Shown: one piece after another, positions 27,100 through 39,690 of the stretch
How positions within the stretch are numbered: position 1 is the first letter of the stretch
Layout of the letters: every line of letters starts with the position of its first letter
NCBI GenBank assembly: GCA_035607015.1
Contig: DATNDF010000505.1
Coordinates: 1 to 46,388 of the forward strand
Reading direction: 5' to 3'
Length of the DNA: 46,388 bases
Source of the DNA: Candidatus Angelobacter sp.
Lineage (GTDB): Bacteria; Verrucomicrobiota; Verrucomicrobiia; Limisphaerales; AV2
Made by a program: the position numbers and the translations under genes
Notes under the pieces: generated by a model
Database searches by the model: none
What the model saw: the letters and a program-made list of their open reading frames with translations, nothing else
What the model was told of the DNA's origin: nothing

Positions 27100-27969
27100 C
27101 ATTGAAAGAACCGGAACGGCCGGCGGCAATCGAAAGAATGACGTTGAACGTTCCGAAGATAATCCCAGGCAACTGGGGAAAGGTGGAGCCAGGCTGGTTG
27201 GCGCGACCCCTCGATGACCGGGCCGCAAGGCGCGGAAACTGGAGGCACAATTCACCAGCTCCTCTGGCGGCGTTCGCGCGCCGTCACAACGCGAATGAGG
27301 GGCTTGGCGGCCAGGAACGATGAGAAACCGTTCCGAGCCGGTTCAAGTAGTCCGGGAGAGTTTCGAACCCGGGCCAATCGCGGTTACCCAGAGGGTATTC
27401 GGTTGCTACCGCGCACCAGAACGGTGCGGGCGACTCTGGCGGATTCGAATTAAGTTTTGAAAACCGCCCAACGAAAAGCATCGAAAGATGGACAAAAGGA
27501 GCGCACGCACCGGGAAGGGCACGAGGTCTCGGCAGGATCCGTGAAAACCTTCCGAAACGCCGGCGATGTTAAAAACGGCACCGCTGGCCTGTGAGCCAAA
27601 AGCAACCTGAGAGTCAAGAGGCGAGACCCGTGGCACTGGGCCAACGCACAGCCAAAAGCCGTGGCCGACCCAGCGCTAAGTGGTGAAGACGCGGAGCCGT
27701 AGTCACAGACGTGTCTTGACCTGGTTCGCAAGCCGGTGGCGCAACCACCAGCACAAGCGAGCTGAAAAGCCTCACTCGAAATCCAGACGCAGCAATGCGC
27801 TGGGCGGCCCTGCTACGAGGCCGGAGACTCCGCTTGCCGTGGAGAATAGCGTCGGGAAGCTGGCAGCCAACGCGCGCCTAATGCCGGCACGGGAAAGAGA
27901 GTGTGGCGCACTCCCACCCCCCATTTCGTCCCCGTCGAATCGAAAGATTCGGCGGGGACATTTGTTTTC
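27100..27969 (+). ncRNA. candidate long structured non-coding RNA or leader, family not identified
   Basis: No credible ORF on either strand. Many short GC helices are joined by A-rich linkers (gaaaag, gtgaaaacc, gttaaaaac, gccaaaagc twice, gctgaaaagc, gggaaagag). It ends in a strong intrinsic terminator. The start coordinate is a guess, placed after the AT-rich patch at 27040-27100. Confidence 0.3.
27930..27969 (+). terminator. rho-independent terminator
   Basis: CCCCGTCGAATC-GAAA-GATTCGGCGGGG, a 12-bp stem with one G-T wobble and a GNRA loop, followed by ACATTTGTTTT. Confidence 0.75.
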
Positions 27970-28115
27970 GGCAGATTCTGCGCCGCCCCGGCCTTGGAAC
28001 CGGATCGTGCGAAGCACCTGGAGGATGCCAAAAAATACTTGCCCCGTTGAAATATTCGGCCACTATCCGGACACACAAATCAGTCCGTTTTCGCGCAAGC
28101 GCGCCTTTGATTTTT

Positions 28116-29302: not shown

Positions 29303-30436
29303 ATGAGCAACAAGCCTAATGGCACACCGGACTACGGTTCCGGTTATTTGGAAATATCGGAGAAGGGCTTCGGTTTCCTCCGTTCCTCGGACAACCACTT
29401 TCAACCCAAACCGACAGACATTTTCGTCACGCCGGACACGATCAAGAAAAACTTCCTGCGCGAAGGTTCGCAGGTCGCCGGTCCGCTTCAACCGCCGCAT
29501 CGGGGAACCAGCCCGCAACTGCGCGAAGTGGAAAAAGTCAATGGCATGGCGTTTTCCGAATATACCAAGGCCGTGCGGTTCGAGAACCTGACGACCATTG
29601 ATCCGACGGAAAAGTTCCAGCTCGAAACGGCGCCTGATCTGGTTGAAACCCGCATTATTGACCTGGTCACACCCCTCGGCAAAGGCACGCGCGGATTGAT
29701 CGTGGCGCCACCGCGGACGGGCAAGACGACCATTCTCAAACAGATCGCGAATGCCGTCACCGCGAACCATCCGGAGGTACACGCAATGGTGCTGCTCATC
29801 GATGAGCGGCCGGAGGAGGTCACGGATTTCCAGCGCTCGGTCAAAGCCGAGGTCGTGGCGTCATCGAACGACCAGGATCTGGAAACACACGTGCGCCTGT
29901 CGCGGTTCATGATCGAACGCTGCCGTCGCATGGTGGAGTCGGGCAAGGACGTGTTTGTGCTGCTGGATTCGCTCACTCGCGTGGCGCGCGCCTATAACAG
30001 CGTGCACGGCGGGAGCGGCCGCACGATGACCGGCGGCGTTGACGCTCGCGCCCTGGAAATTCCCCGGAAAATGTTCGCGTCGGCGCGCAAGATTGAAGGC
30101 GGCGGATCGCTGACCATCCTGGCAACGGCCCTCGTGGATACAGGCTCTCGCATGGACGAACTGATTTTTCAAGAGTTCAAAGGAACCGGCAACATGGAAT
30201 TGATCCTCGATCGCAAGCTTTCCGACCGCCGGCTGTTTCCGGCCATTGACATTCCCAAAAGCGGCACGCGCAAGGAGGAAAAGCTTTTTCCACCGAAACA
30301 TATCGAGGCCATTCGTAAACTGCGTCGAACGATGGTGGACTTGAATCCCGTGGAAGCGATGGAGACGCTCATCGCCGCGCTGAAAAAGCACAAGACGAAT
30401 GAGGAACTGCTGGCGAAACTCGACAAAAGTTCCTGA
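29303..30436 (+). CDS. rho: transcription termination factor Rho (short form lacking the N-terminal helix bundle)
   Basis: GYLEISEKGFGFLRS (start of the OB/RNA-binding domain), Walker A APPRTGKTTILK, LLIDERPEEV, and the C-terminal PAIDIPKSGTRKEE. An in-frame TAA at 29288-29290 blocks any upstream extension. Confidence 0.95.
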   Translation: MSNKPNGTPDYGSGYLEISEKGFGFLRSSDNHFQPKPTDIFVTPDTIKKNFLREGSQVAGPLQPPHRGTSPQLREVEKVNGMAFSEYTKAVRFENLTTIDPTEKFQLETAPDLVETRIIDLVTPLGKGTRGLIVAPPRTGKTTILKQIANAVTANHPEVHAMVLLIDERPEEVTDFQRSVKAEVVASSNDQDLETHVRLSRFMIERCRRMVESGKDVFVLLDSLTRVARAYNSVHGGSGRTMTGGVDARALEIPRKMFASARKIEGGGSLTILATALVDTGSRMDELIFQEFKGTGNMELILDRKLSDRRLFPAIDIPKSGTRKEEKLFPPKHIEAIRKLRRTMVDLNPVEAMETLIAALKKHKTNEELLAKLDKSS

Positions 30437-30531: not shown

Positions 30532-31539
30532 GTGAAGGTGCCCGACAGGCCGAAGGCAAGATCGCTGTGTTCCCGACCCCCGCTTGAGCGGATGCTGCGG
30601 ATTCACCAGGCGGTTCAGTCCGGCGGATATCCCAACGCCACTGCTCTCGCGGGTGAACTTGAAGTCAGCACCAAATCGATTTATCGCGACATCGAGTTCA
30701 TGCGTGACCGCCTGGAGTTGCCGGTTGAATTCGACAGCGTGCGGAATGGGTTCCATTACACGGAGGAGGTCAGCGGCTTTCCCACCCTTCAGATCACCGA
30801 GGGGGAACTTTTCGCCTTGCTCGTCGCTGAAAAGGCCTTGCAGCAGTATCGCGGCACGACCTTCGAGAAGCCGCTCGTCAGCGCCTTCAAGAAAATGGCC
30901 GCGTCCCTGCCTGACACGGTGTCGTTGAACCTTGCCGACTGGGAGCAGACGATTTCCTTCCGCACAAGCGCGGAGCCGGTCTTGGACTTGAAAATCTTCG
31001 ATACTCTTGCCAAGGCGACAGCCAATCGCAAACAACTCGAGCTGACCTACCGCAAGCCCGGGCGAAAGGAAACCGAGCCGCGCGTGGTTGACCCGTATCA
31101 CCTGGCCAATATCAATGGCGAGTGGTTTCTTTTCGCCTACTGCCATCTGCGAAAGGACATCCGCACGTTTGTTCCGGCTCGGATTCTGGAGGCCACCGTC
31201 ACCGGCAAGTCGTTCGTCCGTCCGCAGAAGTTTTCGTTGGAGAAGCGGTTGCGCGACAGTTTCGGAGTTGTCACCGGCGGTGATGAGTTTGACGTCGTGG
31301 TCCGTTTCGACGAACTGGCTGCCGATTACATCCGCGAAAAGCGGTGGCATCCTTCCCAACGGTTGGTCGAGTTGGAGGACGGCGGCGTTGAGTTGCGTTT
31401 GAGGCTTTCCAGTCTCGCGGAAATTCAACGGTGGATTCTGAGTTGGGGCGGCCGTGCCGTCGCGGTGGCTCCACGCGAACTGGCGGAGTCGGTCACCAGC
31501 GCCGCGCGCGCAATTGTCGAGCGCGCGGAGCGGGCCTGA
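30532..31539 (+). CDS. HTH-WYL-domain transcriptional regulator (PafB/PafC-like)
   Basis: RPPLERMLRIHQAVQSGGYPNATALAGELEVSTKSIYRDIEFMRDRLELPVEFD is the HTH. The central WYL-type domain is ...VVDPYHLANINGEWFLFAYCH. GTG start; the alternative ATG at 30592 would cut the conserved RPPLERM. Confidence 0.85.
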   Translation: MKVPDRPKARSLCSRPPLERMLRIHQAVQSGGYPNATALAGELEVSTKSIYRDIEFMRDRLELPVEFDSVRNGFHYTEEVSGFPTLQITEGELFALLVAEKALQQYRGTTFEKPLVSAFKKMAASLPDTVSLNLADWEQTISFRTSAEPVLDLKIFDTLAKATANRKQLELTYRKPGRKETEPRVVDPYHLANINGEWFLFAYCHLRKDIRTFVPARILEATVTGKSFVRPQKFSLEKRLRDSFGVVTGGDEFDVVVRFDELAADYIREKRWHPSQRLVELEDGGVELRLRLSSLAEIQRWILSWGGRAVAVAPRELAESVTSAARAIVERAERA

Positions 31540-31598
31540 TCCGACGCAAGACCGGAGTACGCACGCGCCCGCGATTCGCGCAAAAAATGCTTGTCTGC

Positions 31599-31628
31599 AT
31601 TTGCAAATCGAACGAAGCAGCGTAATAT
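31599..31628 (+). promoter_or_regulatory. candidate promoter with overlapping 10-bp palindrome in front of the proteasomal ATPase gene
   Basis: TTGCAA (31601-31606), a 16-nt spacer, then TAATAT (31623-31628). The perfect palindrome ATTTGCAAAT (31599-31608) overlaps the -35. The -10 ends 7 nt before the A of the ATG at 31635, and there is no Shine-Dalgarno. Confidence 0.35.
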
Positions 31629-31634
31629 CATGGC

Positions 31635-33344
31635 ATGGCTGAGCCAAAGAAGAAGTCCGTGCCGCCATCTCCAGCCGGCAAATCCCCGGCTGACGGCCCG
31701 GAGGTTTCTTCACCACTCGGCGGTCTGCTTCCGCGTGAGGAGTTGGATCGGCTTTCCGCCCTGCAGTTGACTGATCTTATCGTTGGCAAACTGCCGCCGC
31801 GCCACCCGGCCATCCTCGACATGGTCTATTTGCGCGAACGCATCGCATCCATTGAAGAAACAAACGAGGAGGCGCGCCAGGCGATCGAGAAGATGGACGC
31901 GATCATCGAGAAGCTGCGCTCTCCTGCTTTTCGCGTCGGCACGCTGCTGACTCTGATTCAACCGGACCAGGCCCACGTCTGCGTTGGTGGCACGGATTAC
32001 GTCTGCCGTGTCGATCCACAGGTTCCGCTGTCCAGCCTGCAGGTCGGCCAACGCGTGTTGCTGAATGAGGCGTTTGCAGTGGTGCAGGGGCTTGGTTTCG
32101 ACCGCAACGGCCCGATTGTCCGCATTGACGAATTGCTTTCCGACGGCCGTTTGCGCATTGGTCAGGAATCCGGCCTGATGCCGCTCGTTCTTCAACGCTC
32201 CGCCTTGTTGAGCAAGGAAAAGCTCAAGCCGGGCATGGACATCCGGCTTGATGTGAACCAACGGGTGGCGCTCGAGGTCATTGGGATTGGAAAGCGGGTT
32301 GAACGCTCGCTTGAGAACGTGACCGAGCTGCCGTGGTCGTCCATCGGGGGCCAGGAAGAGGCGGTGCAGGCGATTCGCGACACGATTGAACTGCCGTTCC
32401 TGCATCGGGACCTGTTCAAGCGATTCGAGCACACAGTGCCGAAGGGCTTCCTGCTCTATGGGCCGCCGGGTTGTGGCAAGACGCTGCTCGGGAAGGCGAC
32501 CGCCTACAATTTGCGACAGCAAATAAAGACGCAAAGCGGCGTGGACCGGCCGGAATTCTTCCTCCATGTCAAAGGCCCGGAAATCCTGAACATGTGGGTG
32601 GGCGAATCTGAACGGCAGGTGCGCGACCTGTTCACTCAATGCCGCGAACGCGCGAACGACGGGGCGCTGGCGTTTCTGTTCATCGACGAGGCGGAATCCA
32701 TTCTCGGCACCCGCCACGGCGGACGCTTTCACACGATGGCGAGCACACTTGTCCCCATGTTCTGCACGGAGATGGACGGACTTGAGCCGCTGCAAAACGT
32801 GGTCGTGATCCTGGCCTCGAACCGGGCTGATTTGATTGATCCCGCCATTCTTCGGCCCGGCCGCATCGACCGGAAGATCAAGGTCAAACGCCCGGATATC
32901 GCCGGAGCGCAGAGCATCTACGAGATTTACCTTCGCGACTCGCTCCCACTGGCGGAGCCGAAGATCGAATTGGCCCGGGCCGCCGTTCAGGTGCATTACG
33001 CGAAAGCGGAGGAGAACCAGTTTCTGGAGGTGGTTTACCGCAGCGGGAAGCGGGACATTCTGTACCGCGGAGATCTGGCGAGTGGCGCGATCATTGCCGC
33101 CGTGGTGGAGAGGGCCAAGAGCCTGGCGATCAGACGTTCGATAGACACCAGGCAGGAGACCCAGTTGACTCGCGAAGACCTGCTGGCCGCCCTGCGGCGG
33201 GAATACATCGAGAACGATCTGTTCCCCTCGACCGACATCACTGAAGACTGGCTGAAACTGACGGATTTTGACCCGGACAACGTGATCAAACTCGGTCCCA
33301 TCCGCCCACGCAAAGCGGACACCGTTGGAAACGCCGTGGTATGA
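31635..33344 (+). CDS. proteasome-associated AAA+ ATPase (Mpa/ARC-like)
   Basis: N-terminal coiled coil (RERIASIEETNEEARQAIEKMDAIIEKL) followed by an OB-like region. A single AAA module has Walker A GPPGCGKTLLGKA and Walker B FLFIDEAES. It sits directly upstream of the dop-like, modifier and prcBA genes. Confidence 0.9.
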   Translation: MAEPKKKSVPPSPAGKSPADGPEVSSPLGGLLPREELDRLSALQLTDLIVGKLPPRHPAILDMVYLRERIASIEETNEEARQAIEKMDAIIEKLRSPAFRVGTLLTLIQPDQAHVCVGGTDYVCRVDPQVPLSSLQVGQRVLLNEAFAVVQGLGFDRNGPIVRIDELLSDGRLRIGQESGLMPLVLQRSALLSKEKLKPGMDIRLDVNQRVALEVIGIGKRVERSLENVTELPWSSIGGQEEAVQAIRDTIELPFLHRDLFKRFEHTVPKGFLLYGPPGCGKTLLGKATAYNLRQQIKTQSGVDRPEFFLHVKGPEILNMWVGESERQVRDLFTQCRERANDGALAFLFIDEAESILGTRHGGRFHTMASTLVPMFCTEMDGLEPLQNVVVILASNRADLIDPAILRPGRIDRKIKVKRPDIAGAQSIYEIYLRDSLPLAEPKIELARAAVQVHYAKAEENQFLEVVYRSGKRDILYRGDLASGAIIAAVVERAKSLAIRRSIDTRQETQLTREDLLAALRREYIENDLFPSTDITEDWLKLTDFDPDNVIKLGPIRPRKADTVGNAVV

Positions 33345-33509
33345 CGACGTGGAACGTTCGTCTCACCAATGAATCACCGATTGGACAAAGGCGGACACAG
33401 TGATCGGGGTTGACCCAACGGCAGGATCGGGAAAGGGATTCTTTTCCAGGTTGTAAAAAATTTTCCATAACGGGTCGCGCAATCCGTCTGTCTTAATGCG
33501 TAACAATAC

Positions 33510-35018
33510 ATGATCGCGCCCACCATCCAGTTTGGGTTGGAGACGGAAATCGGCATCTTCAGCGACGCGCCGGGCGAGGTTGATGTCGTTGCCGAGTCGA
33601 TCGCGCTCGTGCGTAGCGCCACCGAGCCTGGGGTCTGGATGTGCTGGGACTACGAGTGCGAGGATCCGCACGTGGACATGCGCGGTTTTCGCGTCCACGA
33701 ACTGCGCCAGGACACCGACGAGGCAGACTATTACGCCCAGGACGCGGCGCGCGAACTGAGCTTCGTGGAAATCAAAAGCGATCTCGTGCTCGGCAACGGG
33801 GCGCGCTTTTACAACGACCACGCCCATCCCGAATACTGCACCCCGGAATGCCGCACCCTCGATGAACTGGTCGCGCACGACCGCGCCGGAGAGCGCATCC
33901 TGATGGCCTGCGCGCATCATCTGACTCAACAACGCGGCGTCGCGGTCAGGCTTTACAAGAACAACACGGATTTTTGCGGCCACAGCTACGGTTGCCACGA
34001 GAATTATCTGCTGCCCCGTTCGCTGGCGTGGGAAACGCTGGCGCAGGGAATCCAGGCTTTTTTGGTGACGCGTCAGATTTTTGCCGGGGCGGGCAAGTTC
34101 GCCGTGGAAACCGAGGATAAATTCCTCTCCGCCGGCTTCCAGATTTCGCAGCGCAGTGACTTTTTCTGCGAATTGCAGAGCGTTGATACGATGCAGCGGC
34201 GGCCGCTTATCAACACGCGCGATGAACCGCACGCGAACCCCAAAAAGTTTCGGCGGTTCCATGTCATTCTGGGGGACGCGAACATGTCGCCGTTCGCGAC
34301 CCGGTTGAAGGTTGGCGCGACCGCCCTGGTTTTGGAGGCGCTGGTGTTGGATCCCAGGAGGATTTATCCCGTACTCGCCGATCCCCTGAAGGCACTGACG
34401 AAGATTTCCCGCGATGAGAAGTTTCGTTGGCCGGTGATGCTCGATGGAGGGCGGGCCTCCACGGGCCTGGCGGTCCAGCGGGCCTATCTGGCGGCGGTGC
34501 GCGAGGTCTGTGATCTGACGGTTGCCGCAAAGGCGTCGCTGGTGGCTGATTGGGAAAAGGTGTTGACCGACTTGGAAACCGATCCCATGCGTTGTCACGA
34601 CCGGCTTGATTGGGTGGCAAAGCTCGCGTTGGTGCGGCGTTTTCAAGCGGCGCAAAAACTGCCCGACGGTGACCCGTGGTTGCAGAGTCTCGACCTTGAA
34701 TATCACCGGCTGGACCTGGCGGAAGGGCTGTATTACGGCCTCGAACAATCGGGCGCGATTCTGGGAGCGCCCGATGAGGCAACCGTACGGCGCGCCGTTA
34801 CGCATCCACCGACGACCCGCGCGACCGTGCGGGGAAAGTGCATTCAGAAATTCGCGTCGGCTGTGACGGCGGCGCAATGGGACCACATAACGTTGCAAGG
34901 CAAGGACGGTTCCTTTAAGATTTCGCTCCTCGATTTGTTCACACCTGACGACGTGTTGCGTTGCAGTCGGGCGATTGACGCGGCGCGTTCGCCGGACGAT
35001 TTGCGAATCTTGTCATAA
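33510..35018 (+). CDS. Pup-ligase-family enzyme, Dop-like by position and size (depupylase/deamidase homolog)
   Basis: FGLETEIG, GARFYNDHAHPEYCTPEC, GCHENYL, QRRPLINTRDEPHA, RFHVILGDANM. It is 502 aa and lies immediately upstream of the modifier gene, as dop does in Mycobacterium. Confidence 0.85.
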   Translation: MIAPTIQFGLETEIGIFSDAPGEVDVVAESIALVRSATEPGVWMCWDYECEDPHVDMRGFRVHELRQDTDEADYYAQDAARELSFVEIKSDLVLGNGARFYNDHAHPEYCTPECRTLDELVAHDRAGERILMACAHHLTQQRGVAVRLYKNNTDFCGHSYGCHENYLLPRSLAWETLAQGIQAFLVTRQIFAGAGKFAVETEDKFLSAGFQISQRSDFFCELQSVDTMQRRPLINTRDEPHANPKKFRRFHVILGDANMSPFATRLKVGATALVLEALVLDPRRIYPVLADPLKALTKISRDEKFRWPVMLDGGRASTGLAVQRAYLAAVREVCDLTVAAKASLVADWEKVLTDLETDPMRCHDRLDWVAKLALVRRFQAAQKLPDGDPWLQSLDLEYHRLDLAEGLYYGLEQSGAILGAPDEATVRRAVTHPPTTRATVRGKCIQKFASAVTAAQWDHITLQGKDGSFKISLLDLFTPDDVLRCSRAIDAARSPDDLRILS

Positions 35019-35040
35019 CGTGTCACAATAACCGCAAGAT

Positions 35041-35214
35041 ATGCCTGACCAATCACAAAAATCCCGTCCAGTGGCGCCGGCCGGTCCGGGCGGAGGAGGC
35101 GACGGTCCGAGCGCGCCGAAAGTGGACAAACCCAACGTGGATGATCTGCTCAAACGGATGCGCAAAGTGGATCCGGACCAGGCGCGCCGCTACCGCCAAC
35201 GCACCGGCCAATGA
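35041..35214 (+). CDS. ubiquitin-like small modifier, UBact/Pup-type (57 aa)
   Basis: Missing from the ORF track (under 60 aa). Translation MPDQSQKSRPVAPAGPGGGGDGPSAPKVDKPNVDDLLKRMRKVDPDQARRYRQRTGQ. The N-terminal half is low-complexity and predicted disordered, the C-terminal half is helical and charged, and the last residue is Gln. Its TGA overlaps the prcB ATG (ATGA at 35211-35214). It occupies the pup position between the dop-like gene and prcB. Confidence 0.85.
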   Translation: MPDQSQKSRPVAPAGPGGGGDGPSAPKVDKPNVDDLLKRMRKVDPDQARRYRQRTGQ

Positions 35215-35984
35215 GCGATCCTTCTCCGATCGCGGGCGATTTCCTTTCCCTGCTCGCGCTTCACCGTGTTTCGCCCTTGCGCGCCGCCGTGTCGCCCGAC
35301 GCGCCCGTCCAGACACAGGCGACCACCGTCTTTGCGTTCCACTTCGCAGATGGCGTGCTGATGGCCGGCGACCGCCGCGCGACCGCGGGTAATGTCATCG
35401 TCACAGACCGCGTTGACAAAGTTCTCGAACTGGATGCGACGTCGGTCCTGGCGATCGCCGGAGTACCCGCAACCGCGTTTGAAATGGCGCGGGTGCTGGA
35501 AACTTCGTTTGAATACTACCGGCGCAGCCAGTTGCAGTCGCTCAGCCTGCCGGCCAAGGTCCGCGCCCTCGCGCGGTTATTGCGCGAAAATCTACCATTG
35601 ACCATGCAGGGCGTCGGCGTCGTGATGCCGCTGTTCGCGAGCGTGGATCTGACGGTGACGCCACCCGAGCCACAGATTTACTTTTACGACCCGCTCGGGG
35701 CGCAGTTCCACGCCGTCGGCTATGCCGCATCCGGTTCGGGATCGGGGACGATCCGCAGCATCCTGAGTTTCCAGGACAGGTATGGCGAACCACGGCCCGC
35801 GCGGATGAACCTTCAACAGGCGGTGCAGTTCGCACTGCGTCTGCTGATGACTGCGTCCGAATTTGACTCGGCCACCGGCGGTGTAAATCCGGAAGCGCAC
35901 ACTTTTGCGACCATCAAGATCCTGCGCGGGTCCGGCGTTGAAGATGTGACTGCCGAACAGCAGTCCGAACTGCTGAAATCATGA
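35211..35984 (+). CDS. prcB: 20S proteasome beta subunit with propeptide
   Basis: ...VQTQATTVFAFHFADGVLMAGDRRATAGNVI carries the active-site Thr after a ~37-aa propeptide. GSGS motif: YAASGSGSG. Confidence 0.92.
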   Translation: MSDPSPIAGDFLSLLALHRVSPLRAAVSPDAPVQTQATTVFAFHFADGVLMAGDRRATAGNVIVTDRVDKVLELDATSVLAIAGVPATAFEMARVLETSFEYYRRSQLQSLSLPAKVRALARLLRENLPLTMQGVGVVMPLFASVDLTVTPPEPQIYFYDPLGAQFHAVGYAASGSGSGTIRSILSFQDRYGEPRPARMNLQQAVQFALRLLMTASEFDSATGGVNPEAHTFATIKILRGSGVEDVTAEQQSELLKS

Positions 35985-36721
35985 CGGAAGAACCATATCG
36001 TTGGCTGGAGGCAATCGGGAATCGGCGCGAGTACGTGCGCGAACAGCTGAAGGGCGGATCGCCTGTTTTTGCGGCCTCGCTGCCGGACGGCATCCTGCTG
36101 CTCGGTGTCGGCACGGGCCATTCGAAAGTGTTTGAGCTGTTTGACCGCCATGGGCTCGCTGGCCTGGGGCATCCCGCAGACATTGAAAAAATCCGGCAAG
36201 CCGCCATTGATGCCGCGCATCTGGAAGCGTTCAATCGCGCCCCCGAGGACGTGAGCCTGCGCCGGCTGATCAGCTTCGGGTTAAGCCCGCAACTTAAAAC
36301 GAATTTCGAGCAAATATTCAGCGCCCCGTTTCTGGTGGAACTCCTGCTGGTGGAGGCCGGCACTGAGCCGGGCCAGGATCTGATTGCACGACTGCATTTC
36401 GACGGTGCGTTTCAACTTCACAGCAAAGGTGTCGTCGTGGCCGCGAGCCAGCCCGAGCCCGAAGCGGCTGCGCAAACGTGGGCGAACCAGGTGCTGGCGG
36501 GAAAATCAGACCGCGGCGAGGTTGCCGAAATCCTGCTTCAGGTGTGGTGGTGCCTGATTGAGAACAAACCCTTTAATGACGGGATTCCCGCCGAAGCCGA
36601 GCGACGGGACGGCTGGCGGAAGGCCGTTAATGGACGGACGGCGGAGATTGGCTGGCTGGGGAGAAAGGGTGGCCGCCGTGCGCGGTACGAAGCAGTGACC
36701 GTCGCCCAGCTCGGCTTATGA
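35981..36721 (+). CDS. prcA: 20S proteasome alpha subunit
   Basis: 246 aa with a proteasome-fold pattern (SPVFAASLPDGILLLGV...FELFDRHGLAGLG). ATGA overlaps with prcB (35981-35984) and with the next gene (36718-36721). Confidence 0.85.
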   Translation: MTEEPYRWLEAIGNRREYVREQLKGGSPVFAASLPDGILLLGVGTGHSKVFELFDRHGLAGLGHPADIEKIRQAAIDAAHLEAFNRAPEDVSLRRLISFGLSPQLKTNFEQIFSAPFLVELLLVEAGTEPGQDLIARLHFDGAFQLHSKGVVVAASQPEPEAAAQTWANQVLAGKSDRGEVAEILLQVWWCLIENKPFNDGIPAEAERRDGWRKAVNGRTAEIGWLGRKGGRRARYEAVTVAQLGL

Positions 36722-38112
36722 ACCGGATCGTCGGCCTGGAAACTGAATATGGTTGTTTGACCAGCGACCCCTCCGGGCCGCCCAGCGCCGTCGGCCGGGT
36801 TCGCAACTGGATTTTTGAGAAGAACCGCTTCGGCCTTGCGGACATGCACCAGCGCGACTGGGATGAACCGGCTGGGAATGGCGGTTTTCTTTTCAACGGC
36901 GGAAGGTCCTATGTGGACATGGGCCACCTGGAGTATTGCACACCGGAATGTCTTTCATTGATTGACCTGCTGCGCTACGATCGCGCCGGGGACGCCATTC
37001 TGCTGCACGCGCTCAAAGAAATGCACCTTGCGGAGCAGGTCAGTTTCATTCGCAACAACGTCGATCATTACTCCGGAGCCACTTTTGGCTGCCACGAGAA
37101 TTATCTCGTTCGGCGCACCGCGCCACTCTCTGAAAACAACGTGCTGGCGTTGCTGGCGTTTTTGACGCTGCGGCTGCTCTTCGCCGGATCGGGCCGGGTG
37201 GGTTCGACGCCGGGGGCGGAGTTGCGCGGCGATTTGTTGCGACACGGCGCTGACAGCCATTTTCAGATCAGCCAGCGCGCGGATTACATCAACAACGACC
37301 TGTTCGAGTGGGTGCAATTCAACCGCGCCATCATCAACACGCGCGACGAACCCCTGGCCGACGCCAGAAAGTACCGCCGCCTGCACCTGCTTCACGGGGA
37401 TACGAATGTTTTGCCGACATCTCTCCTGCTCAAGGTGGGCACGACAGCGCTCGTGCTTGACCTGCTGGAACTGGACCAGCTGCCGAAAATCGTTCTGGCC
37501 GACGCGGTGATGACCTTTCGCAATTTGTCCCACCAACCCGACGGTCCCTGGCTGGTGCCTCTGACGGACGGCCGTTGCGCGAGCGCGGTAGAGCTTCTTT
37601 TTAAATTCCTCGACGCGTCGCGGAGGGAGTTTTTCGGCCGCGACAACGAGACTGACGTTGTCCTCCGGGTCTGGGAGGAAGTCCTTTCCGCGCTGGCGAC
37701 GCGTCCGGATATTCTGGTCGGCAAGGTTGACTGGATCACAAAGCGGTGGCTGTTCCGCCAGTTTATGGAGCGAGAGAACATCAGTTGGAGCGATCCGTGG
37801 CTGAAGGCGCAGGACCTCGAGTTTCATCACATCGACCCCGCGCGCAATTTGGGGATCGCCCTGGCCCAGACGCCTTCCGCCTGGGACCCTCCGTCGGCCG
37901 AAATAGCCGACGCCATGCGCTCGGCGCCCGGTAACACGCGCGCGCAGGCGCGTTCCAGGATCATGCGGATGCTCAAAAACCAGCACATCCGCTACTTCGT
38001 GGATTGGGAAGTGATCGACGCGGAGGGAGTCAACTCGTTGAACCTGCTCAATCCATTCGATGCGTCGCCTCCGGAAGCAGACAGCTGGGCGCGCCAGCTG
38101 AACCTTGTTTGA
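36718..38112 (+). CDS. Pup-ligase-family enzyme, PafA-like by position and size (modifier ligase homolog)
   Basis: MNRIVGLETEYGC, GGRSYVDMGHLEYCTPEC, GCHENYL, NRAIINTRDEPLA, RLHLLHGDTNV. 464 aa, compared with 502 aa for the paralog at 33510. Confidence 0.88.
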   Translation: MNRIVGLETEYGCLTSDPSGPPSAVGRVRNWIFEKNRFGLADMHQRDWDEPAGNGGFLFNGGRSYVDMGHLEYCTPECLSLIDLLRYDRAGDAILLHALKEMHLAEQVSFIRNNVDHYSGATFGCHENYLVRRTAPLSENNVLALLAFLTLRLLFAGSGRVGSTPGAELRGDLLRHGADSHFQISQRADYINNDLFEWVQFNRAIINTRDEPLADARKYRRLHLLHGDTNVLPTSLLLKVGTTALVLDLLELDQLPKIVLADAVMTFRNLSHQPDGPWLVPLTDGRCASAVELLFKFLDASRREFFGRDNETDVVLRVWEEVLSALATRPDILVGKVDWITKRWLFRQFMERENISWSDPWLKAQDLEFHHIDPARNLGIALAQTPSAWDPPSAEIADAMRSAPGNTRAQARSRIMRMLKNQHIRYFVDWEVIDAEGVNSLNLLNPFDASPPEADSWARQLNLV

Positions 38113-38115
38113 CCT

Positions 38116-38610
38116 TCAGCGCAGCAACTCCGGTCGCGGAACGGTCGACCGTTTGGTCTCATCATCTGCCTGGTGCCTGTGCTGGCGCTTCAAACCTGAG
38201 GCCGCAGGACGGCGCCCAACCGGCGGTTCCTTTTCCGTGATGTAGCCGCGCAAAAACTTTGGCTTGTCCGGGCGGCCGGCTCGACGGTAATCACTCCAAA
38301 GGGAATCGGCGACGACCGAATGCGGCAGCCCGGATTCTGTCGTCAAAAACTCAAACAGCCACTCCATCAGACGCGGCAGCGCAATGCCGGACTTGCGTCC
38401 GGCCCGCGCGAAGAGCCAGTCGCTCCACCGCATAAACGCCGCGAACGGTGACGGTGTCCCGCTCCAAATCAGCGGCGTGGTCTCCACAAAATTGCCGCTG
38501 TTGCCCACGAGATCCCAATAGCGGGCGAAGCGGCGCACCCGTTGCATGTCGACGAAGCTCACAAGTTTGTTCTGCAGGATTTCGTACGGCGGGTCGGGAT
38601 TGTAGATCAT
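38116..38610 (-). CDS. DUF4080-like C-terminal module of a B12-binding radical SAM protein (separated from the catalytic part by an in-frame TGA)
   Basis: MIYNPDPPYEILQNKLVSFVDMQRVRRFARYWDLVGNSGNF. It is in the same reading frame as 38614-39690, with only TGA-GGA between the two ORFs. Confidence 0.7.
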   Translation of the reverse strand: MIYNPDPPYEILQNKLVSFVDMQRVRRFARYWDLVGNSGNFVETTPLIWSGTPSPFAAFMRWSDWLFARAGRKSGIALPRLMEWLFEFLTTESGLPHSVVADSLWSDYRRAGRPDKPKFLRGYITEKEPPVGRRPAASGLKRQHRHQADDETKRSTVPRPELLR

Positions 38611-38613
38611 TCC

Positions 38614-39690
38614 TCATTCAGCGTCGTGGCGAATGATCGGCGTTCCGCGCAACCGTTTGAGAATGCCCACTTGAATCTCCTGGGGACGGAGCGCGATCAG
38701 CCGGTCGAACCCGGAGGCGAAGCTCTCAAGCGATTCTCCGGGAAGGCCGGCGATCAGGTCCGTGTGGACATGGACGCCGGTTTGTGAACGGAGAAACCGA
38801 AGGTTGTCGGCGAGTTTGGCATAATCCTGCCGACGGCTGATGAGCCGGCTGACCCCGGCATTGAACGTCTGAATGCCGATCTCAAACTGCAGGGCGCCTG
38901 CCGGGAATTGTGCGATGAGATGGCGCAATGCGTCCGGCAGACGATCGGGGATCATTTCAAAGTGTACGAACAAACCCGGTCGATAACGCTCGTAGAAGAA
39001 CTGGAGTATTGCTTTGCTGACGTCCAGGTTCAGGTTGAATGTGCGATCCACAAACTTGAATTGTCGGACTCCGCGACCGAGCAGGCGTTCCATCGCTTCA
39101 AGAAAAGCGGGCAGGGGAAACTGCCGCACGGGAACGTTGAGTGACGACAGGCAAAACTCGCAGGTGAACGGACAACCGCGCGATGCCTCCACATAAATGA
39201 CACGATGCGCCACGTCCTCTTCCGTGTAGAGGTCGTAAGGCAGCACCAGTTCGCTCAAACCGGGACGTTCGGCGGCGATGATTTTATCCGCAGGGCGGCT
39301 CCCGGAAAGGATTTTGCGGCAAGCTTCGGCGAACTTCCGGTCTGCTTCGCCCGTGATGACATAATCCGCGAGGCGCGCGATTTCCTGATTCTCGACCTCG
39401 AAACTGACTTCCGGCCCACCAATGACAACAACAACATCGGGCCGCAATCGTTTGAGTGCCGCGACGGTTTCGGTCGTCTGCGCCACGTTCCAGATGTAAA
39501 CGCCGAGGCCGATGATTTTTGGCTGGCGGGCCAGCAGCACCTCCACCACATCGAGAGGCCGCTGCGTGATATCGAACTCGACGAGGCAGGTTTGTGTCCT
39601 CAGTTCGCCCAGATTGGCGAGCAGGTAACGGAGACCGAAGGCACTGTGGACATATTTCGCGTTCAGCGTGGCAAGGATGATCTCAGCCAT
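38614..39690 (-). CDS. B12-binding-domain radical SAM protein (N-terminal and catalytic part)
   Basis: [23 protein letters not shown] (cobalamin-binding-like Rossmann N-terminus). [14 protein letters not shown] is the CxxxCxxC radical-SAM cluster motif. Confidence 0.88.

Follow-up and report, generated by a model that had tools for sequence, protein, structure and literature searches.

An intact UBact–20S proteasome locus in a Limisphaerales genome

In Mycobacterium and other Actinobacteria, the genes of the Pup–proteasome system follow the order mpa-dop-pup-prcB-prcA ... pafA-pafB-pafC. A modifier called UBact was reportedly named by Lehmann, Udasin, Livneh and Ciechanover in 2017 (BBRC 483:946), in a study said to cover Nitrospirota, Verrucomicrobiota and other Gram-negative phyla. 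PMC5751360 cites that paper. In 2008, Iyer, Burroughs and Aravind had reported Pup/PafA/proteasome neighbourhoods in Verrucomicrobia, including those of Methylacidiphilum and Chthoniobacter (PMC2588565). The literature that we searched contained no experimental work on any UBact system.

Here we describe a locus in a 46,388-nucleotide stretch of DNA (the window) from Candidatus Angelobacter sp., of the Limisphaerales. Its gene content, the families and catalytic residues of the products, and the conservation of the genes and the selection on them, as observed below, argue that it encodes a UBact–proteasome system, the non-actinobacterial counterpart (in Verrucomicrobiota and other phyla) of the actinobacterial Pup–proteasome, and we put the probability of this reading at roughly 0.85.

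Gene order and the modifier

An earlier note on this DNA had described a complete, intact modifier/20S proteasome locus of seven co-oriented genes. The ORF listing places all seven on the + strand, full length and with neither frameshifts nor internal stops; profile-HMM searches found the expected family for each, and the neighbouring rho and cysK genes were both borne out (cysK as a PALP match). The core order of ATPase, Dop, modifier, PrcB, PrcA and second ligase-family gene is common to this locus and Mycobacterium, so the note's comparison with actinobacterial gene order holds for the core but not for the regulators: a single WYL gene lies upstream here, with no pafBC-like pair downstream, whereas Mycobacterium has its pafB-pafC pair downstream. 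Also unlike in Mycobacterium, all of the genes here are contiguous and some overlap. The ATGA stop/start overlaps at positions 35211, 35981 and 36718 can be read directly in the sequence and recur in relatives; the overlap between UBact and PrcB is kept in 51 of 57 of them. Together with the tight spacing, these overlaps indicate that UBact, PrcB, PrcA and paralog 2 are co-transcribed and probably translationally coupled. A terminator-like hairpin found by consensus scan (38082..38100, + strand) overlaps the 3′ end of the paralog 2 gene; it is weak evidence for a terminator and stands as a candidate, because terminator-like sites in the region (7 observed) are fewer than shuffles lead one to expect (11.9).

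The modifier gene (35041..35214, + strand) encodes 57 amino acids that match UBact rather than Pup. The product scored above the curated thresholds of the two UBact models, with E 3.3e-23 for PF20513 in the Pfam profile search and 82.7 bits (cutoff 35) for NF033388 in NCBIfam, and no other Pfam family matched it even at E ≤ 10. It ends in ...RYRQRTGQ, and RTGQ closes the protein in 55 of 56 relatives, the remaining one having RTGE. A Gly-Gln C terminus, as present here, is a requirement for deamidation and conjugation. By its profile matches, then, the modifier is a member of UBact, an already named family.

UBact loci as reportedly described in 2017 share the Gly-Gln end and the layout found here (an Mpa-like ATPase upstream, a Dop-like gene, the modifier, prcB-prcA and a second Pup-ligase-family gene); we found no substantive difference, and the present locus is a further member from a Limisphaerales/Pedosphaera-type genome. 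Like the Verrucomicrobia of the 2008 survey, it brings together a pair of PafA-family paralogs, one of which adjoins a small modifier with a G[EQ] end, and three genes for proteasomal subunits, although it belongs to another verrucomicrobial order (Limisphaerales/Pedosphaerales) and that paper predates both the functional split of Dop and PafA and the name UBact (PMC2588565). To call such loci rare, as the earlier note had done, or novel would be an overstatement: publications of 2008 and 2017 describe them, public databases annotate them, with models in both Pfam and NCBIfam, and they are common within this order, where a narrow pattern scan found them in 163 GTDB species.

The proteasomal ATPase and the 20S core

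Profile and structure-sequence matches point to an Mpa/ARC-type proteasomal AAA ATPase (31635..33344, + strand; 569 aa). Pfam found Prot_ATP_ID_OB_N, Prot_ATP_ID_OB_C and AAA domains in a protein with a disordered N terminus, two OB domains, an AAA domain, a beta-grasp region and the C terminus GNAVV. It aligned with Mtb Mpa (7px9) at E 2.5e-94 over residues 65–561, beta-grasp segment included, and thus shares the Mpa architecture, OB domains and beta-grasp region alike; its score with TIGR03689 (pup_AAA), 428 bits, lies under the cutoff of 504.75. The tails differ: GNAVV stands here in place of the GQYL by which Mtb Mpa opens the gate, a motif essential to that step (PMC9599533), and GQYL is absent from the ATPase tails of the window and 20 relatives, all of which read G-x-[IVM]-[IV].

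PrcB (35211..35984, + strand; 257 aa), the 20S beta subunit, matched Pfam Proteasome at E 1.7e-23 and scored 144.9 bits with TIGR03690. As the earlier note had proposed, it carries a propeptide and an active-site threonine: the propeptide has 37 residues, and residue 38 aligned with the first residue of the mature beta chains of Rhodococcus and Mtb (E 3e-25), so that Thr38, Asp54 and Lys70 correspond to the Thr1, Asp17 and Lys33 shared with the mycobacterial subunit. The cleavage context QA|TTVFAF is kept in relatives. The length of the propeptide distinguishes this PrcB from its mycobacterial counterpart, as does the alanine at position −1, where glycine is usual.

PrcA (35981..36721, + strand; 246 aa) is a divergent alpha subunit. 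It had no Pfam match and matched TIGR03691 (20S_bact_alpha) weakly (E 1.7e-13; 50.5 bits versus a cutoff of 139), but aligned with the Rhodococcus alpha chain (1q5q_A, E 7e-9) and Mtb PrcA (E 2e-5), and the best matches of its AF2 model (pLDDT 75) were Mtb alpha chains (TM 0.64/0.72). Because it has glycine at the position of Mtb Arg26, docking may differ from that in Mtb. The GNAVV tail, the missing Arg26 and the alanine at −1 set the locus apart from the mycobacterial system in minor ways.

The two Pup-ligase-family paralogs

Paralog 1 (33510..35018, + strand; 502 aa) is robustly placed by its sequence as Dop-like, the deamidase/de-conjugase type that the earlier note had assigned to it. It matched Pup_ligase in Pfam (E 8.6e-142) and scored 401.6 bits with the NCBIfam Dop equivalog (TIGR03688) versus 324.3 bits with that of PafA (TIGR03686). 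It aligned end to end with Acidothermus Dop (4b0r, E 5e-93), an alignment that covers the Dop-loop motif WDYEcEDPhvDmRGF. The Dop-specific insertion is present as a loop of 54 residues, the protein nests within the Dop clade of the tree, and 99 of 100 bootstrap quartets placed it with Dop. At the discriminating positions in Table 1 of PMC7947786, it is of the Dop type at Ser27, Val31, Ile84 (Val here), His95, Ala96, Pro103 and Phe208. The Dop-loop and the Pup-ligase-family catalytic residues are common to this locus and Mycobacterium.

Paralog 2 (36718..38112, + strand; 464 aa) matched Pup_ligase at E 1e-110, but its Dop and PafA equivalog scores (272 and 265 bits) both lie far under their cutoffs, and its model fold was about as close to PafA (E 1e-20) as to Dop (E 5e-19). 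In the tree it belongs to a clade of its own, marked by the motif YVDMGHLEYCTPE and named 'PafA2 family' by NCBI, and quartets split 23/34/43 over its placement relative to PafA and Dop. Its alpha-loop (YINNDLFEWVQFN) is lineage-specific and resembles neither that of PafA, in which this region contacts substrates (PMC7947786), nor that of Dop. Unlike its mycobacterial counterpart, therefore, paralog 2 does not group inside the canonical PafA clade, and orthology with the PafA of Actinobacteria is not demonstrable. Both paralogs nevertheless keep 52 of 52 family-wide conserved positions, including GxExE, the catalytic Asp, HENY and RxH...GD, and with them the catalytic residues.

With such ambiguous scores and quartets and an alpha-loop of its own, paralog 2 can be called a ligase by elimination only. 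The roles might instead be distributed differently, with paralog 2 a second amidase or an enzyme acting on another substrate, and with ligation left to the Dop-like paralog or to the product of a gene outside the locus. The slightly higher Dop score, the split quartets, a Dop-like spacing from the catalytic Asp to EY, a proline at the Pro103 position and an extra solo copy in some genomes (L008 and L027 being one MAG) would fit that arrangement. We consider it unlikely, however: paralog 2 has neither the Dop-loop nor the conserved motif of that loop, it resembles PafA at Phe41, Phe54, Gly66 and Asp439, and it retains every ATP/Mg and catalytic residue. It is also the sole other family member in the locus, any tagging system needs a ligase, and in many relatives UBact, PrcB, PrcA and paralog 2 stay side by side, also in cases in which the Dop gene is not next to them. 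We infer from elimination and context, not orthology, that paralog 2 is the UBact ligase; the earlier note's assignment of the ligase role to it needs correcting to that extent.

Conservation, the WYL gene and the predicted pathway

The cluster recurs gene for gene, with full-length ORFs, in 12 or more related genomes of Limisphaerales/Pedosphaera (L001, L003, L007–L010, L013, L017, L020, L033, L035 and L071), and the best 80 of the 163 related loci come almost entirely from Verrucomicrobiota/Limisphaerales/Pedosphaera MAGs, in agreement with the PVC-type genome proposed earlier. dN/dS is 0.02–0.15 for every gene at dS around or above 1, indicating strong purifying selection. Five of the six scores of the components with actinobacterial NCBIfam equivalogs fell under the curated cutoffs, and it has been proposed that other phyla acquired the pathway horizontally from Actinobacteria (PMC7947786), as might suit a remnant of actinobacterial origin, in decay or newly transferred, without current function. 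Such a remnant is extremely improbable: the intact ORFs, the conserved order in relatives and the dN/dS values refute decay, the GC content of the locus (0.59–0.615) resembles that of its flanks, and an identity to actinobacterial proteins of only 34–39% rules out recent transfer.

The WYL gene (30532..31539, + strand; 335 aa) encodes an HTH-WYL-WCX transcriptional regulator of PafB/PafC-like architecture (Pfam WYL, E 2.8e-21; WCX, E 3.8e-16; HTH_11, E 6e-5), with dN/dS of 0.06–0.13. Its identity is as the earlier note had described; its membership in the system is uncertain. The gene is co-oriented with the ATPase and directly upstream of it in 12 of the 18 relatives with enough upstream DNA, and the best PDB sequence matches of its product are PafBC (6sj9, E 4.8e-10) and PafC (7p5x, E 6.5e-8), whose genes are linked to pafA in Actinobacteria. 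This locus and that of Mycobacterium thus both have a linked regulator of the WYL type, and it is plausible but unproven that the protein regulates the locus. There is close to an even chance that it is a mere neighbour with no functional part: it is missing from this place in the other six relatives (L014, L015, L022, L029, L031 and L032), 95-nt gaps flank it on both sides, and other WYL regulators, including CapW/BrxR-like chains and CRISPR-associated WYL models, match about as well as PafBC and PafC.

The locus is an intact copy of the described UBact–20S proteasome cluster of Verrucomicrobiota, well conserved rather than new. By homology to the Mycobacterium system, UBact would be made with a C-terminal Gln, which the Dop-type paralog 1 would deamidate to Glu. 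Using ATP, paralog 2 would activate the gamma-carboxylate of this Glu and join it to lysine side chains of targets, and paralog 1 would also strip UBact from conjugates. Removal of the 37-residue propeptide would expose Thr1 of PrcB, and the hexameric Mpa/ARC-type ATPase would bind the tag, unfold the substrate and thread it into the PrcA/PrcB 20S core.

Organization and conservation of the UBact–proteasome locus

The earlier note had read seven co-oriented genes at positions 30532–38112, and the ORF listing agrees with it exactly: on the forward strand lie, in order, genes for a WYL regulator, an AAA ATPase, a Pup-ligase-family protein (paralog 1), the Pup-like modifier UBact, the proteasome subunits PrcB and PrcA and a second Pup-ligase-family protein (paralog 2). 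The ATGA overlaps that had been claimed at 35211, 35981 and 36718 are also present in the sequence. They join UBact (35041–35214, 57 aa), PrcB (35211–35984, 257 aa), PrcA (35981–36721, 246 aa) and paralog 2 (36718–38112, 464 aa), implying that the presumed ligase is translated together with the tag and the core particle. The other gaps in the locus are 95, 95, 165 and 22 nt. Among relatives, the 4-nt overlap between UBact and PrcB is kept in 51 of 57, the overlap between PrcB and PrcA is 4 nt in 32 and 8 nt in 11, and the 4-nt overlap between PrcA and paralog 2 is found in 25.

Scanning one genome for each GTDB species by pattern, we found 163 loci encoding a close relative of paralog 2; the sequence covered reached about 10 kb to either side of each. 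The best 80 of the 163 come almost entirely from MAGs of Verrucomicrobiota, Limisphaerales or Pedosphaera, the nearest at 93% identity. Using tblastn with the window proteins, we recovered the full order cysK–rho–WYL–ATPase–Dop–UBact–PrcB–PrcA–paralog 2 in L001, L007–L010, L013, L017, L020, L033, L035 and L071, and the same order from WYL onward in L003 (numbered loci in related genomes), in every case at about 100% coverage. Three types of locus occur in the order: the full locus; UBact–PrcB–PrcA–paralog 2 with no ATPase or Dop gene within 8 kb; and a solo paralog 2. This variation was noted at L005, L006, L012, L019, L026, L027, L034, L037, L039 and others. UBact still ends in Gln in the loci without Dop or ATPase within 8 kb, and in relatives without WYL, Dop or Mpa genes, what lies upstream of the ATPase or UBact gene is heterogeneous. 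One MAG holds both a full locus (L008) and a solo copy (L027, 75% identity), which means that two copies of the paralog 2 type occur together in some genomes. Several loci (L001, L017, L034, L042, L069, L070 and L077) are filed as Haliangiales, Akkermansia muciniphila, Baltobacteraceae, Saccharimonadales or Klebsiella sp.; these implausibly named contigs with a Limisphaerales-type locus are probably mis-binned or mislabelled MAG contigs.

Comparing the window with L001, L003, L033 and L035 (Nei–Gojobori), we obtained for each gene a dN/dS of 0.02–0.15 at a dS of about 1 or more, and none of the locus genes is interrupted. Together with the synteny and the kept overlaps, these values mark the locus as a functional, vertically maintained operon. 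The synteny and dN/dS rule out a decaying remnant. We also looked for a compositional signal of recent horizontal transfer and found none in the GC content of the window, which is 0.59–0.615 over the locus and does not depart from that of the remainder.

Upstream of the locus lie a PALP-family cysteine-synthase-like gene and rho. The rho gene (29303–30436, +) encodes a product of just 377 aa with a Pfam Rho_RNA_bind domain (residues 13–83) and the ATPase domain; the N-terminal Rho_N domain is absent, and no longer ORF was found upstream of 29303. Directly upstream of cysK, the MISL RNA (Rfam RF03079), a large structured non-coding RNA, was matched over its full length at 27157–27914 (+; 572.9 bits, gathering score 274.6; model positions 1–751 of 751). 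The true start of cysK is probably near 28113 (MGRIYNDIV...), not at the GTG at 27903. On the opposite strand, a B12-binding radical-SAM gene with a DUF4080 C-terminal domain (38116–39690, −) is interrupted by one in-frame TGA (38614–38616, context ...RHDAE*GMIY...). Trp occupies this position in five of six relatives (L001, L002, L003, L025 and L032; RHDAEWQMVY), and also in L028, where the context is slightly different, so the TGA in the window is either a nonsense mutation or a sequencing error.

The first gene of the locus (30532–31539, +) encodes a 335-aa protein with the Pfam domains HTH_11, WYL and WCX, an architecture of the PafBC type. Its best PDB matches are PafBC and PafC, with generic WYL regulators scoring similarly. 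The gene stands alone, upstream of the ATPase gene, with no pafB/pafC pair downstream of pafA. Of 18 loci in which an ATPase gene is accompanied by enough upstream DNA, 12 contain it and 6 do not. Regulation of the operon is a possible role for the WYL protein; another is control of a stress regulon, as with PafBC. A reading of the locus as a defence system was rejected: a PADLOC scan gave only generic matches to the WYL and AAA proteins and nil for the ligase-family proteins.

The modifier and the two ligase-family proteins

UBact scored 81.6 bits against its Pfam profile PF20513 (cutoff 27.8) and 82.7 bits against NF033388 (cutoff 35), and gave no match to Pup or to any further Pfam family at E ≤ 10. 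Its C terminus, RTGQ, supplies the Gly-Gln end for the proposed deamidation and conjugation. The same ending was found in 55 of 56 relatives, with RTGE in one, and the C-terminal half of the modifier is almost unvarying among them (...LLKRMRKVDPDQA[KR]RYRQRTGQ).

Paralog 1 (33510–35018, +; 502 aa; Pfam Pup_ligase), which the earlier note had taken for the deamidase and de-conjugase, is clearly a Dop-type protein by its sequence features. Its best profile was the Dop model TIGR03688, built on Actinobacteria, at 401.6 bits (cutoff 492.3, not reached), against 324.3 bits for the PafA model TIGR03686, and it matched the Acidothermus and Mycobacterium Dop proteins at E 5e-93. Its Dop-loop motif, WDYEcEDPhvDmRGF, aligns to WDFEeENPlrDaRGF in Acidothermus Dop. 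We scored the Dop-loop by aligned loop length, a motif regular expression having been too strict and having missed most Dops; the loop has 54 residues in paralog 1, 48–49 in reference Dops and 7–8 in PafAs. At the positions that discriminate Dop from PafA (Table 1 of PMC7947786), paralog 1 is Dop-type at Ser27, Val31, Ile84 (Val here), His95, Ala96, Pro103 and Phe208. It has no additional residue behind the catalytic Asp, and its alpha-loop is Dop-like in part only. In a neighbour-joining tree of 115 sequences (50%-identity representatives with Acidothermus Dop, Mycobacterium Dop and Corynebacterium PafA; 450 trimmed columns), paralog 1 was nested in the Dop clade, and 99 of 100 bootstrap quartets with PafA and a fourth clade joined it to Acidothermus Dop. 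The loop insertion, the residues and the tree thus all place paralog 1 with Dop, as the earlier assignment would have it.

Both paralogs also retain the ATP/Mg-binding and catalytic residues of the family: each keeps all 52 of the columns that are at least 90% conserved among 115 family members (PF03136), including GxExE, the catalytic Asp, HENY and Arg/His residues.

The identity of paralog 2 (Pfam Pup_ligase) as the ligase is less direct. It has no Dop-loop motif, the corresponding region being 24 residues, and the PafA profile matched it end to end (residues 3–455), whereas the Dop profile matched only from its position 81. Phe41, Phe54, Gly66 and Asp439 are PafA-like. Yet the two profile scores, 264.6 bits for PafA TIGR03686 (cutoff 551.3) and 272.2 bits for Dop, are both far under their cutoffs, and paralog 2 departs from PafA at Ala37, Ser50/51, Ala72 and Ala74 and in the extra residue that PafA has behind the catalytic Asp. 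The spacing there (VDMGHLEY) has the Dop length, and Pro stands at the Pro103 position. The alpha-loop, YINNDLFEWVQFN, is unvarying in relatives and resembles neither the PafA consensus HxWEGxSSAxxRS (PMC7947786) nor the FxEVExGLExxLK of Dop. In the tree, paralog 2 fell apart from the canonical PafA clade (LYLDVGSHPEYATAE), in a clade of its own (motif YVDMGHLEYCTPE).

Neither quartets nor structural models separated PafA from Dop as the closer match. The quartet that joins paralog 2 to PafA and Dop to paralog 1 received 95/100 support, which mainly reflects the strong grouping of Dop with paralog 1. When paralog 2 was placed in distance-based quartets with PafA, Dop and the fourth clade as reference, the topologies split 23/34/43. 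An AlphaFold (AF2) model of paralog 2 (pLDDT 74) was used to ask which form the alpha-loop takes, the helix of PafA or the loop of Dop; it shows a low-confidence helix at 194–206, where pLDDT is below 50. In Foldseek, the model matched PafA at E 1e-20 and Dop at E 5e-19 (TM 0.69–0.73), and the two were not separated.

The likeliest reading is that paralog 2 is the ligase, to which we give a probability of about 0.7–0.75, because the system requires a ligase and paralog 2 is the sole candidate in the locus. The lack of a Dop-loop and the end-to-end PafA match agree with the assignment in the earlier note; the scores, the spacing at the catalytic Asp, the alpha-loop and the separate clade make the equation with PafA weaker than it had been taken to be.

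The proteasome core and its ATPase

PrcB matched the Rhodococcus and Mycobacterium tuberculosis (Mtb) beta subunits at E about 1e-25. Its match to the Pfam Proteasome family PF00227 passes the cutoff, and its score against the 20S_bact_beta model TIGR03690 is 144.9 bits, under the cutoff of 191.9. As the earlier note had proposed, a propeptide precedes the predicted active-site Thr: Thr38 aligns to residue 1 of the mature beta chains 1q5q_H and 2fhg_H. The other Ntn-hydrolase residues are in place, with Asp54 at the Asp17 position and Lys70 at the Lys33 position. Gly is typical at position −1 of active beta subunits from actinobacteria, archaea and eukaryotes, as also in the Rhodococcus alignment. 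In PrcB, this position is Ala (QA|TT; residues 37–39, window 35319–35327), and it is likewise Ala in 46 of 47 relatives.

PrcA is more diverged, with a weak match to 20S_bact_alpha (TIGR03691, 50.5 bits, E 1.7e-13; cutoff 139) and no Pfam match. It matched the Rhodococcus alpha subunit 1q5q_A at E 7e-9, and the top Foldseek matches of its AlphaFold model (pLDDT 75) were Mtb alpha chains (TM 0.64/0.72). When PrcA is aligned pairwise with alpha subunits from actinobacteria, it retains the pocket Lys (Mtb Lys52) and has Gly in place of Arg26. The 1q5q_A match, the Foldseek matches and the kept Lys together identify PrcA as a predicted proteasome alpha subunit, by both sequence and modelled fold.

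The ATPase (31635–33344, +; 569 aa; Pfam Prot_ATP_ID_OB_N, Prot_ATP_ID_OB_C and AAA) is of the Mpa/ARC type, with a double OB, AAA and beta-grasp architecture. It matched Mtb Mpa at E 2.5e-94 over residues 65–561, covering the beta-grasp segment, and its best NCBIfam model was TIGR03689 (pup_AAA; 428 bits, under the cutoff of 504.75). In Mtb, the penultimate Tyr of the gate-opening GQYL tail (HbYX type) contacts Arg26 or Glu119 of the alpha subunit (PMC9599533). The tail in the window is GNAVV (33330–33344), and GQYL or a penultimate Tyr was found in none of the 20 relatives examined, all of which end G-x-[IVM]-[IV]. The ATPase tail, the PrcA pocket and the PrcB site show small, consistent differences, which suggests co-adapted docking and processing.

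Relation to the Pup system

By homology, the Gln-ended UBact would be deamidated by Dop, activated by paralog 2 and ligated to substrate lysines; the Mpa-type ATPase would then recognize and unfold the tagged substrate for degradation by PrcAB, and Dop would also undo the tagging. Compared with the mycobacterial model of the Pup system, there are differences in the alpha-ring pocket, the ATPase tail and the presumed ligase. A possible but rather doubtful reading of these differences is that the verrucomicrobial UBact system is not a simple copy of the Pup system but an anciently diverged sister with its own mechanics, since features of the ligase, the ATPase docking, the PrcB site and the WYL gene point that way. 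The ligase would then be an independent Pup-ligase lineage, with a lineage-specific substrate-binding alpha-loop and, at the catalytic Asp, a spacing similar to that of Dop. The ATPase would dock without the GQYL/HbYX tyrosine, onto an alpha ring without Arg26; the beta subunit would process itself after Ala, not Gly; and the single WYL regulator would be ancestrally linked, as pafBC is in Actinobacteria.

In 2017, Lehmann et al. (cited in PMC5751360) reportedly gave the modifier the name UBact, and they are said to have described, in Gram-negative phyla, homologous components for conjugation and for the proteasome. Iyer, Burroughs and Aravind (2008, PMC2588565) had noted that the genes for Pup, two PafA paralogs and the proteasome lie next to one another in Verrucomicrobia, in Nitrospirae and in further phyla, and Dop/PafA homologues are described as sporadic in Verrucomicrobia (Hecht et al. 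2020, PMC7947786). Near-identical database proteins (98–99% identity) carry names such as 'proteasome accessory factor A', 'PafA2 family protein' and 'proteasome alpha subunit'. Our literature search for experimental work on UBact or on non-actinobacterial pupylation found only citations and reviews. The interpretation in the earlier note was largely right, but the UBact–proteasome system, one of the non-actinobacterial 20S proteasomes that it had presented as rare, is already known and is common in the order, as the 163 loci attest.

Proteasome-linked protein tagging in Gram-negative bacteria was known from genomes, and the window adds one more intact example, leaving knowledge of this kind of system unchanged. 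Set beside the roughly 80 related loci, it allows a clear comparison: the tag and the overlap of UBact with PrcB hardly vary, and Dop and the actinobacterial enzyme are orthologues. The differences from the mycobacterial model help in the design of experiments on the system.
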